Source of the DNA: an uncultured Thermoplasmatales archaeon
GTDB lineage: Archaea; Thermoplasmatota; E2; UBA202; DSCA01
Length of the DNA stretch: 53,407 bases
Assembly (NCBI GenBank): GCA_964514975.1
Contig: CAZESS010000017.1
Span: 1-53,407, forward strand
Direction of reading: 5' to 3'
A program made the position numbers and the translations under genes. This document shows positions 3,442 to 28,311 of the stretch, one piece after another (the stretch's first letter is position 1; the number at the start of each line of letters is the position of its first letter). A model generated the notes under the pieces. It ran no database searches. It saw nothing but the letters and a program-made list of their open reading frames with translations, and was not told the origin of the DNA.

Positions 3442-5266
<1,825 letters not shown>

Positions 5267-5289
<23 letters not shown>

Positions 5290-5782
5290 TTGTATCACCT
5301 TTTGAGACTACGACATATGCTGGTTTGAGGATGCTGTCGCCCAGCCGGTATCCTTTTCTGACTTCGTCGATGATGACGCCCTCGTCGTGCTCATTGCTGC
5401 ATTCGGTGGCGACGGCGTGGTGGCAGGTGTAATCGAAGGAGGCGCCGACGGTGTCGATTTCTTCGATGCCCTCGTCCTCCAGCATCCGCTGGAACTGTTC
5501 CGTGACCAATGTGAGCCCGTCGTCGTTGATGTCGTCGCTGGCAGCGGCGAGGTTCTCGTATATATCGATGAACCTGGTGAGCAGTCGTTTTCGCTCCGCC
5601 CTGACGGCTTCCTCCGTTCGCTGCCGCATTCGTTTTTTGTAGTTGTCGAAGTCGGCGAGGAGGCGAAGGTAGCGCTCCCGGGCGTCGTCGAGCTCGGCGT
5701 TGCATGCGGCCTGCTCCGCGTCGCTGCTTGATGCGACCTCTGATGCTGCGTCAGCGTTCGCTCTCTCTTCTGATGACTCCAT
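5267..5782 (-). CDS. grpE: nucleotide exchange factor GrpE
   Basis: [12 protein letters not shown], FDxxx[22 protein letters not shown]; overlaps dnaK start. Confidence 0.96.
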
Positions 5783-13322: not shown

Positions 13323-15109
13323 CCGCCCACGTGGAGGCTTGGGTCGCCCATGACCTGGAACTGCTCCACGGTCATCATGTAGAAGCGGTCGTTTGCCTCG
13401 CCGGCGGCCACGTCGTTGAGGTAGTCATGCTTTGCCTGCACCAGCATCTCAGCCACCGGCCGGCCGGGCTCGTAGGCCTGGAAAAAATGCAGGTCGAGGT
13501 AGCCGGCCTGGCCATGTGGCCCGTCCTCGTCCACGCTCGTTGTTGCAGTCTCGGTGGCGCCGATGGTCGCAATCGCGCCGCCATCCGGTTTTTTGACCAG
13601 GGCCCAGGCGAAGCAGGGCACGTCCTCCATGCCCAGCATGTAGTATTCCAGCTTGGCGGTCAGGCAGGCGTCGAAAAACACCACCGGGAGGCGCTCCTGG
13701 TTTTGCATATGGAGCAGATAGGGCGTGTAGTAGGCGATCATCCATCGGCTGTCATGGGGATACGTCCCGAAGCCGTATTCGAAGCCGTGGCCCGAGTAGC
13801 AGACCAGGCCGGCGCCCTCCGTCCATATCTGGTTGATGCGATGCGGCAGAAAGTTTCCCTCCGCCATCTGTATCTTAACGTGCTCGAACTGGGGCATGGC
13901 ATCGGCGACATGCTGGTTGACCAGCTCGCCCTCGTAGACACCCCAGCCGGGGAACGTGTCGCCGCCCATCAGGATGAGGCGGTTGAACCAGTCGCTGCCC
14001 CCAGCCGTGTTCTCGTAGGTCACGATCTTGTTGACCACCGTCTCGACCTCCTCGACATCCTTGCAGAGCAGCCGGCCCATGTAGACATCTGCATAGAGGT
14101 CGACCTCGTCGCTGCTCCCGTCCTCGGTTTCGCCGTAGCGGCCGTTGCCGTTTGAATCCCAGGAGCAAAAGCTCATGTTGTCGCCGTAAATGTCAGCGTA
14201 ATAATAATCCGCATACATTGTCCCGCCGCCCCAGAAGCTGTAGACCAGCCTGGAGGGCACCTTTTCTATGTCGCCCACCAGCATCAGATACCGGATCCCC
14301 CATTCCTCGATGGCGTCCCGGACAAAATATTTGATATGCGCCGGGTCGTCCTCCCCCTGCACCGTGAAATAGTCCCCGCTGTATATCTCGGCAGGGGTGA
14401 CGAGCTTGGTCGCCAGGCCGTGTTGTTCCTTGTGCTCAGCGAGCGGCTGCAGCGCCCCGGTAAACGCCTCGGGGGCGACAACGAGCAGGTCATACCTGTC
14501 TGCATGGGACAGCGGATGCTCCGGCACCCGATAGGTCACCTCCACCGTCATATTTTGGACGGAGCGGAGCTCACGGGACACCGGATGATACCGGGCGGGA
14601 AAGAGCTGCAGAGAGCAAAAGGTAACCCGTTCGCCGTCGTGCAGGCCAACACCGGTATGCCAGTCCATCCATCCAGATGGATACAGATCATCGCTCTCAT
14701 ACACCTGGCCCTCCCTCCGCTGCGGCGATGCACGGCTGTCGGCCGCTGCGGGCTCGAGCGCCGGGCGGACATGCGCCGGGAGCTGCTGCGTGTGCACCAT
14801 GCCATGGGTGATCGATACATCGGTGACGGTGGCGCCGGCAGGGAGGTATACCACCTCGGTGTGCTGCGGCACCATGGGCATCCCGCCGTTGCTAACGGTC
14901 GACGACGCATCCGGGACGGTGACGGTGCAGTAGCCATCTGTCTCGGATACCGCGGGCGGCGAAAACGTGCAGGATAAGGTACGCGATGCTATCATCTGTT
15001 GCACCTCCGCCATGTCGTCCTGGCCGCCGGGTGCGGGGATGGCGGTCAGCGCTGAACCGGCTACCAGCATGCCGAGCAAAAACAGGCCGATATATGCATT
15101 GAATTTCAT
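13316..15109 (-). CDS. secreted C25 (gingipain-like) cysteine peptidase with propeptide
   Basis: signal peptide; YLMLVGD, ADYYYAD, VYMGRL, catalytic SGHG and DACLT, GDP C-terminus. Confidence 0.9.
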   Translation of the reverse strand: MKFNAYIGLFLLGMLVAGSALTAIPAPGGQDDMAEVQQMIASRTLSCTFSPPAVSETDGYCTVTVPDASSTVSNGGMPMVPQHTEVVYLPAGATVTDVSITHGMVHTQQLPAHVRPALEPAAADSRASPQRREGQVYESDDLYPSGWMDWHTGVGLHDGERVTFCSLQLFPARYHPVSRELRSVQNMTVEVTYRVPEHPLSHADRYDLLVVAPEAFTGALQPLAEHKEQHGLATKLVTPAEIYSGDYFTVQGEDDPAHIKYFVRDAIEEWGIRYLMLVGDIEKVPSRLVYSFWGGGTMYADYYYADIYGDNMSFCSWDSNGNGRYGETEDGSSDEVDLYADVYMGRLLCKDVEEVETVVNKIVTYENTAGGSDWFNRLILMGGDTFPGWGVYEGELVNQHVADAMPQFEHVKIQMAEGNFLPHRINQIWTEGAGLVCYSGHGFEYGFGTYPHDSRWMIAYYTPYLLHMQNQERLPVVFFDACLTAKLEYYMLGMEDVPCFAWALVKKPDGGAIATIGATETATTSVDEDGPHGQAGYLDLHFFQAYEPGRPVAEMLVQAKHDYLNDVAAGEANDRFYMMTVEQFQVMGDPSLHVGGY

Positions 15110-25284: not shown

Positions 25285-25354
25285 ATTGTCACCTCTTGCA
25301 GCATTGATATAATCCCGGCGGTAATGAACCCTTTCCTTTTTATATTTTTCCCAC

Positions 25355-25362
25355 CATATATC
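25355..25362. repeat. left copy of 8-bp target site duplication CATATATC
   Basis: identical to 28304-28311; abuts the left IR. Confidence 0.92.
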
Positions 25363-25447
25363 GGTTCTGTTAACTCGGCGGGTGATTTTTCCGCCTGTTA
25401 AGTTAGCGGGTGACGAATGTTTTTATAACTCGTCTCCTTTTGGTTTT

Positions 25448-25519
25448 GTCCCGCCCGAGCGTGTTGGTCACCGCCCACGTCATAGGGATTGTGATTATCT
25501 TTCCCTTCTCGGGCGGGAC
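25448..25519 (+). ncRNA. candidate IS-encoded sRNA antisense to the transposase translation-initiation region
   Basis: TTTTATAA at 25421-25428; perfect 12-bp closing stem GTCCCGCCCGAG/CTCGGGCGGGAC; 25460-25473 pairs with 27070-27083 and 25499-25507 pairs with 27085-27093. Confidence 0.7.
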
Positions 25520-25614
25520 GCCTATTCAAAATGGGATATGAACTATTCTGTGAGCCAACCACAACCGCATACAATCTTTTACCAAGTGAGTAATACTCTG
25601 CAACTGCGGAAAGA

Positions 25615-25635
25615 ACCCGAAATCCTAACAGAACC
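25615..25635 (+). repeat. internal copy of the right IR
   Basis: ACCCGAAATCCTAACAGAACC identical to 28283-28303. Confidence 0.9.
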
Positions 25636-25779
25636 GAGGTGGCGAAGGTGAGGTGGTTGTGGCCTTTTCCGTTGATTTTCGCTTTGTTGTGTGAGCTATA
25701 TTACATGCCTTATAATGAGGGGGAATGGTTCTTTGTTGGTATTATTGTGATATATTGCTTAATTTTATCTCATCGGCTT

Positions 25780-26391
25780 TTAAATTCCCAGAAGGAATTT
25801 AGCAATTGGTTTTACAACAAGAATATACCCGACCATGATGACGACAATGAAAATAAAATAATATGATAAATAGTGTCCATAAATTTTCCGTTGTTCATTC
25901 GCTCTTCGTGAAGGATCTTGGATACTTTGAAAAATTATTGAGAATGAAACGCCAGCGAAAAGACCAATCATTAAATAAAACAATGCACGAAATTCCTCCT
26001 CTTTGTCCATTAAAGAGACGGTGTCTTGAAATAAAGGAGATACCAATAATAAAAAGCTTAATGAAAAAATTGCTAATACAAAACCCACGAAATATATTAT
26101 TTTTAAAATGCCTTCCCCTATGGGCATCCATCGTCCTTCAAAATCTTGATAACGGTATTCTCTTGGTATATCTTCCACGGCCTTTGTTTCTTTTGCAAAT
26201 TTTGTATAATAATATATCTCATAAATGGTGGCCACAAAGGGGAGCGACCACATCATTGCAACGATTATTACAAAGTAAATCTCAATGTTTTCTAAATAAC
26301 CAAGTTCCCTTATCCCAAGAACAGCAATCATCGGTATTGCTGATAAATAGAAAAGATAAAGCGATATTTTTCTTATCTTCTTTCTATCCAT
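25780..26391 (-). CDS. hypothetical multi-pass membrane protein (IS passenger)
   Basis: 203 aa, about 5 TM segments, AT-rich codons, AGGTG upstream. Confidence 0.75.
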   Translation of the reverse strand: MDRKKIRKISLYLFYLSAIPMIAVLGIRELGYLENIEIYFVIIVAMMWSLPFVATIYEIYYYTKFAKETKAVEDIPREYRYQDFEGRWMPIGEGILKIIYFVGFVLAIFSLSFLLLVSPLFQDTVSLMDKEEEFRALFYLMIGLFAGVSFSIIFQSIQDPSRRANEQRKIYGHYLSYYFIFIVVIMVGYILVVKPIAKFLLGI

Positions 26392-26419
26392 CTCCGATGC
26401 ACCTTTTTAACAATCAATT

Positions 26420-26710
26420 TTATTCAAGTAATCCATACAGAATACCAATAGATATACAAAGAAATGAAGAGGCAATCAATACTGCTGATAATAAATTCAT
26501 ATCAATATTGTGCCATGCTACACCAACGGATAAAATAATTAATATAAAACCACCTATACCAACGAAGCCATGGGATAGCCTGTCAAATATAAATCCTACT
26601 CTCTTATTTGAAAATTCTCCACTAAAAAACGGAAGTATATCCTTGATAGAATTATTAGGGGTTTCATCAATTGGGAAGCAAAGATATATTCCTTTTTTTC
26701 CATCTCTCAT
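26420..26710 (-). CDS. hypothetical small 2-TM protein (IS passenger)
   Basis: GAGGTG SD before ATG; two C-terminal hydrophobic helices. Confidence 0.6.
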   Translation of the reverse strand: MRDGKKGIYLCFPIDETPNNSIKDILPFFSGEFSNKRVGFIFDRLSHGFVGIGGFILIILSVGVAWHNIDMNLLSAVLIASSFLCISIGILYGLLE

Positions 26711-26757
26711 AACTATGCACCTCATCTATGTATCTGGTAATGACTTAAAATCGTTAT

Positions 26758-26819
26758 GGGAATGCCCATCTGTGCATTTTGAGCAAAGCTCCTATGCACC
26801 TCAACAGGTGGGCATTCCC
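26758..26819. repeat. 16-bp inverted repeat enclosing a structured loop
   Basis: GGGAATGCCCATCTGT / ACAGGTGGGCATTCCC (15 WC + 1 G.U on the + strand). Confidence 0.75.
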
Positions 26820-26821
26820 TC

Positions 26822-26986
26822 CTATTCCTTTGGTTTCAGGATATACATATCGTCGGCAACGATGCCCTTTAGTTCTTGGTTGTCACTCCATTTTAGCCGT
26901 CTAAAGTCATCCTTGGGGATGGTCACGGTGTATTTGACGTATGTTTTCCCCTTGTACTGTCGGCTCTCACTCTTTTGCAGTTTCAT
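26822..26986 (-). CDS. AbrB/MazE/SpoVT-like small DNA-binding protein (54 aa, not in ORF track)
   Basis: MKLQKSESRQYKGKTYVKYTVTIPKDDFRRLKWSDNQELKGIVADDMYILKPKE*; 'VTIPK...L.W....L' swapped-hairpin pattern; divergent from the transposase. Confidence 0.75.
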   Translation of the reverse strand: MKLQKSESRQYKGKTYVKYTVTIPKDDFRRLKWSDNQELKGIVADDMYILKPKE

Positions 26987-27002
26987 AGTACCTAAATATA
27001 AG

Positions 27003-27020
27003 AAAGGTATATATACCTTT
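27003..27020. promoter_or_regulatory. perfect 18-bp palindrome in the divergent abrB/tnp promoter region
   Basis: AAAGGTATATATACCTTT. Confidence 0.6.
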
Positions 27021-27080
27021 AGGGTGCTAAAATACCGTAAGGTTTATATAGACTTTCCCGTTATGTATATGGTGACCAAC

Positions 27081-28220
27081 ATGAAAGGGAAAGTAAGCCG
27101 AGCCAAGCTCGAAAAACTGAGAAAAATGAGGGCGTATGCCATCATAGCGAAGGGCGATATGCCCCAAAAGAAGGATAAGGATATTTTCATGGTGCCCTCG
27201 CAGAGTGAGCCGCAAAAGACCTACACGGTAACACACAATGGCGGATGGGAATGCTCCTGCTCCGACCACCAAGAGACGGGATTGATGTGCAAGCACATAC
27301 AGTCGGTGCAGATGTGGGAAACCTTTGACGAGCATCAGGATGACGATGTCCTTGAATTAAAGGCAGAGATTGACCATCCACAATGCGACGAATGCGGTTC
27401 ATACGCTGTCGTTAAGAACGGGAAACGGCAGACCGAACAGGGAGAAAAACAACGGTATATGTGCAAGGACTGTGGCCATCGGTTTGTGCAGGAGCAGATA
27501 AAATACCGGAAGGCAAACACGAAACTCATCGCTCTCTGCCTCGACCTCTATTACAAAGGATTGTCGCTCCGTAAGATAGCGGATACGCTGGAGCAGTTTT
27601 ATGACCTCGACGTAAGCCACGTTGCGGTTAAGGACTGGATTGACACCTTCATGGACAAGATAACCGAATATGTGAACAAATACAATCCTGACCTTGGCGG
27701 TGAATGGAACATCGATGAGCAAAAAGTCAAATCGGATGGGAAATGGGTGTATGCATGGAATGTCATGGACAAAAAGACACGCTTCCTTGTCGCTAACAAA
27801 ATCACGGAACAGCGGAGCATCCTTGAAACCAAAATGGTCATGGGGAAGGCGACGGGACAGACCGAGACACGCCCAGAGCGTGTCGTTACCGACGGTATGA
27901 CGGCATATCCAGCAGCCGTAAAGGGTATGTTCCCCACAGCAGAACATATCCACAATGCAGGGATACGGGACGCTGTGAACAATAACACCCTCGAAAGGTA
28001 TCATGGGACATTCAGAGAGCGAGACAAGGTGATGCGGGGGTTAAAGAGCGATGAGACCGCAGACAGCATGATAGACCACTATCGGACATATTACAATTTC
28101 ATATGGGGGCACACATCACTCAACGGGCAGACACCCGCAGAAATGGCAGGGATAAAACTCGCCGATGGAAAGAATAAGTGGCTGTCGCTGCTGGAAAAAA
28201 GCACGGAGGGGATACAATAA
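27081..28220 (+). CDS. IS6-family DDE transposase with N-terminal SWIM zinc finger and zinc ribbon
   Basis: GGTGA SD; CSC..CKH (SWIM), CDECG..CKDCG, HTH (GLSLRKIA), WNIDE / VVTDG / NNTLERYH. Confidence 0.92.
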   Translation: MKGKVSRAKLEKLRKMRAYAIIAKGDMPQKKDKDIFMVPSQSEPQKTYTVTHNGGWECSCSDHQETGLMCKHIQSVQMWETFDEHQDDDVLELKAEIDHPQCDECGSYAVVKNGKRQTEQGEKQRYMCKDCGHRFVQEQIKYRKANTKLIALCLDLYYKGLSLRKIADTLEQFYDLDVSHVAVKDWIDTFMDKITEYVNKYNPDLGGEWNIDEQKVKSDGKWVYAWNVMDKKTRFLVANKITEQRSILETKMVMGKATGQTETRPERVVTDGMTAYPAAVKGMFPTAEHIHNAGIRDAVNNNTLERYHGTFRERDKVMRGLKSDETADSMIDHYRTYYNFIWGHTSLNGQTPAEMAGIKLADGKNKWLSLLEKSTEGIQ

Positions 28221-28303
28221 AACCCTTTTCTTTTTCCCAAAAATCACCCGCATCTAACAGTCGGTTAAAAACCGTCAATATCACCCGAAATCCTAACAGA
28301 ACC

Positions 28304-28311
28304 CATATATC
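28304..28311. repeat. right copy of target site duplication CATATATC
   Basis: identical to 25355-25362. Confidence 0.92.

Follow-up and report, generated by a model that had tools for sequence, protein, structure and literature searches.

The window, that is, the whole stretch of DNA analysed here, comprised 53,407 nt of contig CAZESS010000017.1 (GCA_964514975.1) from an uncultured Thermoplasmatales archaeon. It contained a 2,941-bp element of the IS6 family (25363-28303) with an 8-bp target duplication and cargo genes (Table 1). Duplications of 8 bp are typical of the IS6 family. The corresponding empty site was represented by a related contig in run X2, in which the left flank is joined directly to sequence resembling the right flank. 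The transposase matched PF13610 (E 7.7e-21) and scored 128.8 bits against the curated IS6 model NF033587, for which the cut-off is 125. According to the sections of the IS6 review used here (PMC7986276), the terminal inverted repeats of this family are short and have characteristic tip and internal motifs, and both motifs were present at the tips at 25363 and 28303. The left-end tip was the same in relatives, and within the left end of the window element subterminal repeats were located at 25367-25385 and 25395-25413.

The usual IS6 form is compact, with a single reading frame and free of passenger genes. The present element, which has two cargo ORFs, a 54-aa gene and a predicted RNA gene, departs from it and is an IS6-family transposon with additional genes rather than a plain insertion sequence. 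Neither cargo ORF (203 aa and 101 aa) matched a Pfam family significantly, and cargo content varied among related elements. Homologues of the 54-aa gene adjoin the transposase gene in many relatives; five of the 11 homologues searched matched PF04014, with a best E value of 0.00025. The comparison shows an IS6 clade of cargo-carrying transposons with an accessory AbrB-like gene; a passenger gene is known in a single IS6 member in the part of the review consulted (PMC7986276). The loop of a second hairpin, located between the cargo and the accessory gene, copies + strand sequence from the start regions of both cargo ORFs. No copy of the element other than the window's own was found in the same genome, and no relative of the transposase was found in the viral contigs searched. 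Four public sequencing runs were listed, all of DNA and none recorded as RNA.

Table 1. Features of the IS6-family element and its flanks in the window
Feature	Position	Strand	Remarks
Target-site duplication, left copy	25355-25362		Identical 8 bases at 28304-28311, just outside the terminal repeats
Left terminal inverted repeat	25363-25413	+	Inverted pairs I1 and I9 with right end; direct repeat D3
TATA-like box, predicted promoter of hairpin RNA	25421-25428	+	27 nt ahead of first stem base
Predicted hairpin RNA, 72 nt	25448-25519	+	12-bp closing stem around two inner hairpins
Guide segment 1	25460-25473	+	Pairs with 27070-27083
Guide segment 2	25499-25507	+	Pairs with 27085-27093; -12.5 kcal/mol, rank 1 of 15 targets
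Internal exact copy of outer 21 nt of right terminal repeat	25615-25635		D1, I16
Cargo, two ORFs, A+T-rich	25780-26725	-	203 aa, 25780-26391; 101 aa, 26420-26725
Second hairpin	26758-26819	+	I6, D16, D17; homologues in L033 and L034
Accessory gene, 54 aa, AbrB/MazE-like	26822-26986	-	Divergent from transposase gene
Transposase TATA box	27043-27050	+	Fixed distance from first base of target, 16/16 elements
Target	27070-27093	+	Predicted message 5' end, hexamer resembling a Shine-Dalgarno sequence, and first five codons including the start
IS6-family transposase gene, 379 aa	27081-28220	+	N-terminal zinc-binding parts; PF13610, NF033587
Right terminal inverted repeat with two subterminal repeats	28239-28303		Inverted pairs I1 and I9
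Target-site duplication, right copy	28304-28311		Equals 25355-25362

The predicted RNA gene is located in a 273-bp unit bounded by the left end and the internal copy of the terminal repeat, and its hairpin sits 85 nt inside the left end of the element. The arms of the perfect closing stem (25448-25459 with 25508-25519, pair I17) are separated by 48 nt. The 72-nt unit folded with -36.3 kcal/mol (z -4.58), and none of 200 shuffled sequences was as stable. The A/T box, the 12-bp stem and the 72-nt unit were all located where the initial annotation had placed them. The distance from the TATA-like box to the stem base equals that from the transposase TATA box (27043) to 27070. Since the opposite strand folded about equally well (z -5.24) and the hairpin is a perfect palindrome, the window alone is silent on the strand of the RNA. 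A search of 25300-27200 against Rfam release 15 gave nothing better than an E value of about 1, and nothing on the + strand of the hairpin. When 16 related loci were searched at the Rfam gathering scores, only a tRNA was found, and no family, including c4, matched the hairpins.

The two segments lying just inside the stem arms had been claimed to pair with the start region of the transposase message, and this complementarity was recovered. Guide segment 1 forms 12 Watson-Crick and two G.U pairs with its target, including a perfect 11-nt core (pair I21), and the six bases opposite the first hexamer of the target fall mostly in a predicted loop. Guide segment 2 is a perfect complement, and a single unpaired base, 27084, lies between the two targets. 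Guide and target are separated by 1,621 nt on the same strand. RNAcofold, which joins RNA and message into one strand, cannot represent loop pairing while the closing stem stays intact, since that would be a pseudoknot. The energy it returned for the window was just -7.2 kcal/mol, a value that 0 of 200 shuffled targets reached, and duplex energy combined with opening costs was used in its place. By itself, the 14-nt match in the window is no better than chance controls: its run score of 25.0 stood against 23.0 at the runner-up site and a maximum of 24.0 on the reverse-complement control of the same 4.4 kb. Its significance comes from its place against the stem arms and from comparison with related elements.

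Thermoplasmatota MAGs and metagenomes yielded 19 distinct related elements with the same module, their transposases being 39-100% identical; microbial mats or salt lakes are the habitats of these elements. In each module a TATA-like box precedes, by about 27 nt, a hairpin with a closing stem of 11-17 bp, and a segment of the hairpin loop is complementary to the opening 14-20 nt of the element's own transposase message. In related copies, to which the initial annotation had referred the question, the stem was kept and the guides co-varied with the 5' ends of their own transposase genes. Guide and target were always on the same strand, 301-4,007 nt apart in the relatives, and in the most compact of them (L105 and L037-) the RNA gene is located about 300 nt upstream of the transposase start; the 1.6-kb separation in the window results from inserted cargo. 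In the upstream DNA, the guide was the top-scoring complement of the start region on the + strand, and it scored above the reverse-complement control in 16/16 elements.

The module was present in 16 of the 55 transposase copies compared. No guide was found upstream of five elements with the conserved start hexamer, for which 512, 903, 1563, 1665 and 4235 nt were covered; the last of these, L104, is a real exception and counts against an antisense RNA. Complementarity of 15-16 nt was seen in L104, L111 and L102, but no hairpin accompanied it, and these matches were attributed to chance. In other clades of the transposase, no comparable module was detected in G009B, G009D, G002 and copies with other start-region motifs. 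In G002, an 11-nt sense copy of its own start region was observed beside a left-end hairpin.

Nine hairpins representing both architectures gave a structurally poor alignment with MAFFT (A2), and an alignment of ten hairpins of the type with a single inner hairpin (A3) was used instead. The resulting covariance model leaves out the type with two inner hairpins (window, L033, L034, L052 and L055), whose members were unmatched at E values up to 1. New hairpin copies were found with this model in 10 of 151 genomes. Six of the new matches had downstream DNA, and in four of them, representing three distinct elements, a transposase gene was located 2.0-4.0 kb downstream, with its start region being the best complement of the loop within up to 5.5 kb. 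The remaining two had 3659 and 1832 nt of downstream sequence, in which a transposase gene was absent.

The 15-nt target stretches of all 18 elements compared differ, and each guide tracks its own target. Mean duplex energies were -28.9 kcal/mol for own pairs and -13.5 kcal/mol for foreign pairs, the own target being the best in 14/16 rows. With opening costs included, own pairs had a mean of -17.0 (range -12.9 to -21.6) and foreign pairs a mean of -0.6 (sd 5.5); the own target was then the best in 14/15 rows and 15/15 columns. Such short, imperfect complementarity to a start region, kept by compensating changes, is that of a trans-encoded small RNA. The closing stem also co-varied: nine of its 13 pairs were changed on both sides and 94.5% of the cells were paired, which was equalled by none of 500 shuffles. 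That the pairing is kept across transposases with as little as 39% identity is strong natural evidence of selection on the pairing.

Over 18 elements and 15 target positions, 251 Watson-Crick pairs, 16 G.U, one A.C and two other combinations were counted, and the closing stems contained 20 G.U among 127 cells. The claim that the deviations keep pairing for a + strand RNA, made from the window, extends across elements (16 G.U vs one A.C). This asymmetry and the G.U pairs of the stems fit a + strand RNA that would fold and pair with the + strand message. The initial annotation had further proposed a trans-acting repressor with a split guide. A separate element-encoded RNA complementary to the start region is supported by all the sequence evidence, including the co-variation in 19 elements, the G.U asymmetry and the promoter-like box, but the bipartite guide did not hold as a family feature: the second segment was strong in only 3/15 elements (window, L033 and L055). 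In L033, the homologue of the second guide of the window keeps its pairing through a change on both sides.

Promoter-like geometry was found at both sites. An A/T octamer occurred 19-23 nt ahead of the hairpin stem in 15/15 elements, with the A/T peak at -27 to -22, and the transposase TATA box has the same position relative to the first base of the target in 16/16. Complementarity begins in all elements at the same conserved triplet, the predicted transcript start, which is message position 1 in 15/15. Opening the 5' ends of the messages costs only 0.4-4.5 kcal/mol. The six seed bases of the guide were unpaired with a mean probability of 0.86, compared with 0.31 for the rest of the guide, and the seed value was higher in 14/15. 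Judged by eye, 8/15 hairpins were followed, within about 25 nt, by at least four consecutive T; the hairpin of the window was not one of them.

The anatomy, co-variation, strand asymmetry and promoter-like geometry of these elements point to a self-made RNA brake on transposition, in which a non-overlapping antisense RNA of the element probably blocks translation of its own transposase. We infer from sequence that the hairpin is transcribed, where its RNA ends, that it pairs with the message in the cell and that it represses. A small RNA of approximately 70-90 nt, with a promoter of its own and the same orientation as the transposase gene, would be transcribed and would fold into a long-stem hairpin, whose inner hairpin loop would show six bases complementary to the first six of the message. 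The 5' strand of the inner stem would extend the complementarity over the spacer and the start codon, and in the window element the second segment beside the 3' arm would add 9 bp. The loop would contact the unstructured 5' end of the short-leadered message, the inner stem would then open and the pairing spread, until the ribosome-binding region and the start codon were covered by duplex. Transposase output would fall, and the brake would grow with the copies of the element and its RNA, each guide-target pair being private to its element lineage. The conserved hexamer of one clade resembles a Shine-Dalgarno sequence less well, and because of this poorer fit a block of the ribosome-binding site is perhaps not the whole story.

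The hairpin might instead act only in cis: transcripts reading through from outside or from the left-end promoter would fold the guide onto the start and could not be translated, unlike messages initiated at the transposase's own promoter, and the element would be guarded against outside activation. Such an arrangement would suit the location of guide and target on the same strand in all elements and their separation of about 300 nt in L105 and L037-; the absence of a T-run after some hairpins would suit it too. A cis mechanism of this kind could also operate alongside action in trans. We regard cis action alone as unlikely, since a TATA-like box stands at promoter distance from the hairpin base in 15/15 elements, T-runs do follow 8/15 hairpins, the separation reaches 1.6-4 kb and the cargo genes of the window are on the opposite strand. 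More improbable still is an RNA that pairs with DNA, invading the non-template strand where the promoter or the start of the transposase gene lies and blocking transcription or marking its own DNA, perhaps helped by the zinc-binding parts of the transposase or the AbrB-like protein. The message and the coding-strand DNA have the same letters and G.T wobble is tolerated in hybrids, so that sequence does not distinguish between them, and in IS110 and IS1111 a non-coding end specifies a structured guide RNA. However, the complementarity has its upstream limit at the predicted transcript start and in no case reaches into the promoter, the start codon is covered in all elements, and the loop of the window has no match to the insertion site.

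If no RNA were involved, the complementarity would be a DNA-level inverted repeat kept by gene conversion, or would represent recombination or protein-binding sites. Part of the match is indeed an ordinary DNA inverted repeat (I21), but the mismatches are strand-asymmetric, the window, L033 and L055 have their two segments in an order permuted from that of a simple inverted repeat, and the match in L043 has a one-base bulge. Furthermore, the repeat has a sharp boundary where the transcript is predicted to start, the variable spacer changes although the DNA-binding parts of the transposase are conserved, and in several elements the target hexamer is not the same as the subterminal repeats; we give this explanation very little credence. 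A chance match or a rearrangement scar of this copy alone would agree with the chance-level score of the window, but it is refuted by co-varying partners in 19 distinct elements and by the out-of-sample prediction that was passed, which leaves it a negligible probability.

Beyond translational control by a non-overlapping antisense RNA, the reading that we prefer, lies a wider possibility, which is speculative and on balance doubtful: the hairpin RNAs could be lock-and-key regulators that define compatibility groups of archaeal transposons, with RNA control of translation extending across the element. Co-resident relatives, two in G009 and two in G047, have guide-target pairs without cross-reaction, and each lineage may count only its own copies. 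The second conserved hairpin, with a loop antisense to the cargo start regions, may extend the same control logic. The 273-bp left-end unit may also be able to spread by itself, as a miniature element by which the parent is silenced. If the lock-and-key reading were true, it would provide element-wide RNA control in archaea, and nature would have supplied a library of orthogonal RNA repressors.

In bacterial IS10 and IS200, it is textbook knowledge that an antisense RNA, which overlaps its target, controls translation of the transposase. The regulator proposed here would be a separate structured RNA gene, with specificity maintained by co-evolution among transposases down to 39% identity. A full-text literature search returned no report of such a regulatory RNA for IS6, and the words 'antisense' and 'small RNA' were absent from the sections of the IS6 review used here (PMC7986276). 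If true, no earlier dedicated regulatory RNA would have been described in the IS6 family, and the few sequence-defined small RNA-target pairs of archaea would gain one from lineages for which metagenomes are the sole source. Mutually non-reacting guide-target pairs are numerous in nature and could possibly serve as orthogonal translational switches.

The bridge RNA of IS110 and the seekRNA of IS1111 guide a DEDD-type recombinase to target and donor DNA. The putative hairpin RNA resembles them in being structured, in having guide segments within internal loops and in being encoded by a non-coding end of the insertion sequence, but the enzyme here is a DDE transposase of the IS6 family and the guide fits the element's own start region. 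A target guide of the bridge-RNA type was considered for the window only and rejected: against the 80-nt reconstructed empty site, the longest identical match of the loop was 6 nt and the longest complementary match 5 nt, values equalled by 266 and 440 of 500 shuffled loops, respectively. In Pyrococcus furiosus, antisense RNA over the transposase start of insertion sequences, mostly IS6, has been proposed to silence them (PMC6640164). Those transcripts start on the opposite strand inside the element and overlap their target, and a separate structured RNA gene is not described in the sections of that report used here (PMC6640164).

In IS200, the element-encoded small RNA art200 pairs with the transposase message and suppresses it; art200 and the stem-loop of the tnpA 5' UTR are the subject of PMC4513863. 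Unlike the RNA proposed here, art200 is encoded opposite the 5' UTR, overlaps its target in cis, and belongs to a bacterial element with a different transposase family. Among relatives of the phage antisense RNA c4, matched changes give each element its own specificity. The c4 RNA itself reportedly pairs through short separate segments with a downstream control site, a result ascribed to Citron and Schuster in 1990. Like the hairpin RNA, it is a mobile element's own upstream, same-strand RNA that does not overlap its target, as described for phages P1 and P7 in the passages of PMC8198154 used here. In contrast to the hairpin RNA, c4 belongs to the same operon transcript as its target, and it controls an antirepressor, not a transposase.

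RNA-OUT of IS10/Tn10 is a hairpin antisense RNA whose loop meets the 5' end of RNA-IN and which covers the ribosome-binding site and the start codon. The putative archaeal RNA is alike in being a hairpin made by the element with a loop directed against the 5' end of the transposase message, and copy-number-dependent inhibition would be expected of both; the relation of Hfq to IS10 is the subject of PMC5006887. The bacterial RNA-OUT is encoded on the opposite strand across its target, so that its complementarity is perfect and co-variation is not needed. The predicted archaeal IS6 RNA gene lies on the same strand as its target without overlap, in contrast to the opposite-strand, overlapping position of a cis-encoded antisense RNA. 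It is a separate locus, 0.3-4 kb from the target, with a closed hairpin, and its 14-20 nt of complementarity are kept by compensating changes.

The transposase of the IS6-family element in the window scored 128.8 bits against the curated IS6 model (cut-off 125) and also matched PF13610. It carried zinc-binding parts at its N-terminus, and a C-x-C...C-x-H pattern, as in SWIM fingers, was seen in its translation; no SWIM domain was found in it by Pfam at E up to 0.01. The window's genome contained a single copy of the element. A contig from a salt-lake metagenome run (X2) joined the left flank (window 25300-25353) to right-flank-like sequence, that is, an empty site. Also in this run were short contigs that matched parts of the cargo almost exactly (25538-25837 and 26573-26844), together with transposase pieces that differed at many positions (24 to 28 in about 200 to 265 nt). 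The A/T box, the 12-bp stem and the two pairings around one unpaired base, all described in the initial annotation, were confirmed.

Features of the transposon and homologues of its second hairpin (I and D, inverted and direct repeat pairs within the window; L033 and L034, loci with related transposases)
Feature	Position	Remarks
8-bp flanking duplication	25355-25362 = 28304-28311	identical bases outside both ends
Terminal inverted repeats	left end from 25363, right end to 28303	pairs I1, I9
Subterminal repeats		two at each terminus; direct repeat D3
A/T box	25421-25428	5' of hairpin
Perfect 12-bp stem	25448-25459 with 25508-25519	48 nt enclosed; inverted pair I17
Guide segment 1 and target	25460-25473 with 27070-27083	12 Watson-Crick and 2 G.U pairs
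Guide segment 2 and target	25499-25507 with 27085-27093	perfect complementarity; 27084 unpaired
Internal exact copy of the right end's outer 21 nt	25615-25635	direct repeat D1
A+T-rich stretch with two opposite-strand ORFs		between the 25615-25635 copy and the second hairpin
Second hairpin	26758-26819	between cargo ORFs and 54-aa gene
54-aa gene	26822-26986	minus strand, divergent from transposase gene
Transposase gene	27081-28220	curated IS6 model and PF13610
Second hairpin homologue, L034	about 3703-3762	minus strand
Second hairpin homologue, L033	6988-7045	minus strand

Relatives of the transposase were sought in 61 related genomes (31 with a match), in 401 genomes of the phylum (21 with a match at E up to 1e-60), in a species-genome collection (10 loci) and in metagenome contigs (27 loci); none were found in the viral contigs searched. 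The related records were labelled as Thermoplasmatota or Thermoplasmata MAGs; one contig was binned as a Kosmotogaceae bacterium, and three more distant contigs were binned as other archaea. The comparison covered 55 transposase copies once near-duplicates had been removed. In 16, the start region had as its best plus-strand upstream complement a run of 14-20 nt (the guide) within a window-like hairpin, 301-3506 nt upstream. The guide run exceeded the best reverse-complement control run in all 16 elements; in L070 it was tied by an unrelated local repeat, and in L043 the pairing contained a one-base bulge. Five copies with the same conserved start hexamer had no guide within 512, 903, 1563, 1665 and 4235 nt upstream, and four more had less than 450 nt upstream, too little to judge. 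The module of TATA-like box, hairpin and matching guide was not seen in copies with other start-region motifs.

The 15-nt target differed from element to element in all 18, and each guide tracked its own. Duplex energies averaged -28.9 kcal/mol for own pairs and -13.5 kcal/mol for foreign pairs; own targets ranked top in 14 of the 16 rows and own guides in 13 of the 16 columns, and the rows and columns that departed from this belonged to close relatives with nearly the same target. When the opening costs of both RNAs were included, leaving out L081, whose hairpin is cut by the contig end, the own mean was -17.0 (range -12.9 to -21.6) against -0.6 (sd 5.5) for foreign pairs, and the own target was top in 14 of the 15 rows and in every one of the 15 columns. 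By duplex energy, no cross-reaction was found between co-resident elements (two each in genomes G009 and G047).

In ten hairpins of the type with a single inner hairpin, RNAalifold gave a closing stem of 13 bp, in which 94.5% of 127 cells were paired (20 of them G.U) and 9 of the 13 pairs had changes on both sides. These values were reached by none of 500 shuffles, and slid controls fell to 42-62% paired. Run over 151 genomes of the class, a covariance model of the ten hairpins matched 14 places in 10 genomes, six of them new and with downstream DNA. At four of the six, a transposase gene lay 1,952-4,007 nt downstream and its start region was the single best complement of the loop; two were identical copies in G206, so the four (the others in G321 and G442) represent three distinct elements. 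At the remaining two, no transposase gene was found in the 3,659 and 1,832 nt up to the contig ends. Including these finds, 19 distinct elements carried the module. On contig C1 of G206, the identical hairpin and transposase modules (5493-5559, minus; 13892-13958, plus) point outward about 8.4 kb apart, as a possible composite transposon.

In 15 of 15 elements, 19-23 nt separated an A/T octamer from the first stem base, with the A/T fraction peaking at 0.8-1.0 at -27 to -22. The transposase TATA box lay at -28 to -21 from the first target base (16 of 16). Archaeal TATA boxes are usually centred about 26 nt upstream of the transcript start; on that spacing the small RNA is expected to begin at the stem base and the transposase message at one of the first three target bases, giving a predicted leader of about ten bases. 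In all 15 elements examined, complementarity began at message position 1; it never extended further upstream, a boundary in agreement with the predicted message start. The leader would contain a Shine-Dalgarno-like hexamer in the window's clade; in the more distant clade, a variant of the hexamer would take its place. The six guide bases facing this hexamer (the seed) had a mean unpaired probability of 0.86, compared with 0.31 for the remaining guide bases in the inner stem, and the seed was the more unpaired in 14 of 15 elements. The message 5' ends were nearly unstructured (opening cost 0.4-4.5 kcal/mol).

The split guide of the initial annotation proved real but not general. The segment by the 3' arm paired strongly with codons past the start in 3 of 15 elements, namely the window (-12.5 kcal/mol), L033 (-13.1) and L055 (-10.7), each ranking its own target first of 15; the other 12 had only a U-rich tract there. 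The window and L033 shared a geometry with one unpaired base between the two targets, and between them one pair of the second guide was changed on both sides.

The 54-aa gene was kept next to the transposase gene in many relatives, upstream and divergent, and was AbrB/MazE-like (5 of 11 homologues matched PF04014, best E 0.00025). In many elements a short palindromic motif, a possible operator for this protein, lies directly 5' of the transposase TATA box. G.U pairs in the second hairpin favoured the plus strand. The window loop (26789-26803) has the plus-strand sequence of 26392-26404 and 26713-26724 (D16, D17) and is thus antisense to the start regions of the two opposite-strand cargo ORFs; the L034 loop is antisense, over 12 nt, to the adjacent cargo ORF around its start codon, and in L033 no such loop repeat was found. 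This hairpin may be another regulatory RNA built along the same lines as the first. The cargo between RNA gene and 54-aa gene (window 25636-26757) differed between elements, being 0.3 to 4 kb long in either orientation. The two window ORFs matched no significant Pfam family; the 203-aa translation of one of them looked membrane-protein-like by eye. In the closest relative (G001), the cargo includes a tRNA gene (L032 4696-4770, minus strand of the locus, in transposase direction; 57.4 bits to the Rfam tRNA model). Window 25363-25635, a 273-bp unit of left end and internal right-end copy, encloses only the predicted promoter and the hairpin. It is laid out like a miniature element able to mobilise just the RNA gene; the window's genome has no other copy of it. 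Nested in the G009 element is another left end (L034 4460-4606, minus), which carries a hairpin RNA of its own; as its guide does not match that element's transposase start, it seems to be an orphan or solo end. At L005 (about 150-260, G002), the left-end hairpin follows an 11-nt copy of the transposase start region that is in sense, not antisense, orientation.

Within the 4.4 kb upstream of the window transposase, the 14-nt match alone was not above chance (run score 25.0; next site 23.0; reverse-complement control 24.0); with guides following their targets from element to element, a chance match is scarcely credible. A role for the opposite strands or for duplex DNA would predict A.C and G.U in equal numbers. 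Guide-target cells (18 elements by 15 positions, without L043 and three hairpin-less candidates) comprised 251 Watson-Crick, 16 G.U, 1 A.C and 2 others, and a DNA-level repeat appears very improbable. Pairing of the RNA with DNA is improbable too, to a slightly lesser degree. Folding of the window's hairpin favoured neither strand (-36.3 kcal/mol, z -4.58; opposite strand z -5.24) because the stem is a perfect palindrome, and the covariance model's preference for the plus strand (e.g. 60.4 vs 18.7 bits) is expected, having been built from that strand. Action only in cis, on read-through transcripts, is unlikely, and is itself compatible with trans action. The best reading of these sequences is that an element-encoded small RNA probably blocks translation initiation of the transposase: the hairpin loop would meet the 5' end of the message, and pairing would then spread across the ribosome-binding region and start codon.

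By term counts, an IS6 review contains neither 'antisense' nor 'small RNA'; it names one family member with a passenger gene. A P. furiosus study reports that antisense transcripts over its IS elements (IS6 in 17 of 24 cases) mostly overlap the starts of transposase reading frames. Full-text searches listed no report of a non-overlapping RNA of such kind in an insertion sequence. The hairpins matched no Rfam family. IS10 RNA-OUT acts on RNA-IN through a loop that meets the 5' end, with pairing that covers the ribosome-binding region and start codon. The proposed mode is like that of RNA-OUT, except that this RNA gene occupies a locus of its own, so specificity must be kept by compensating changes.
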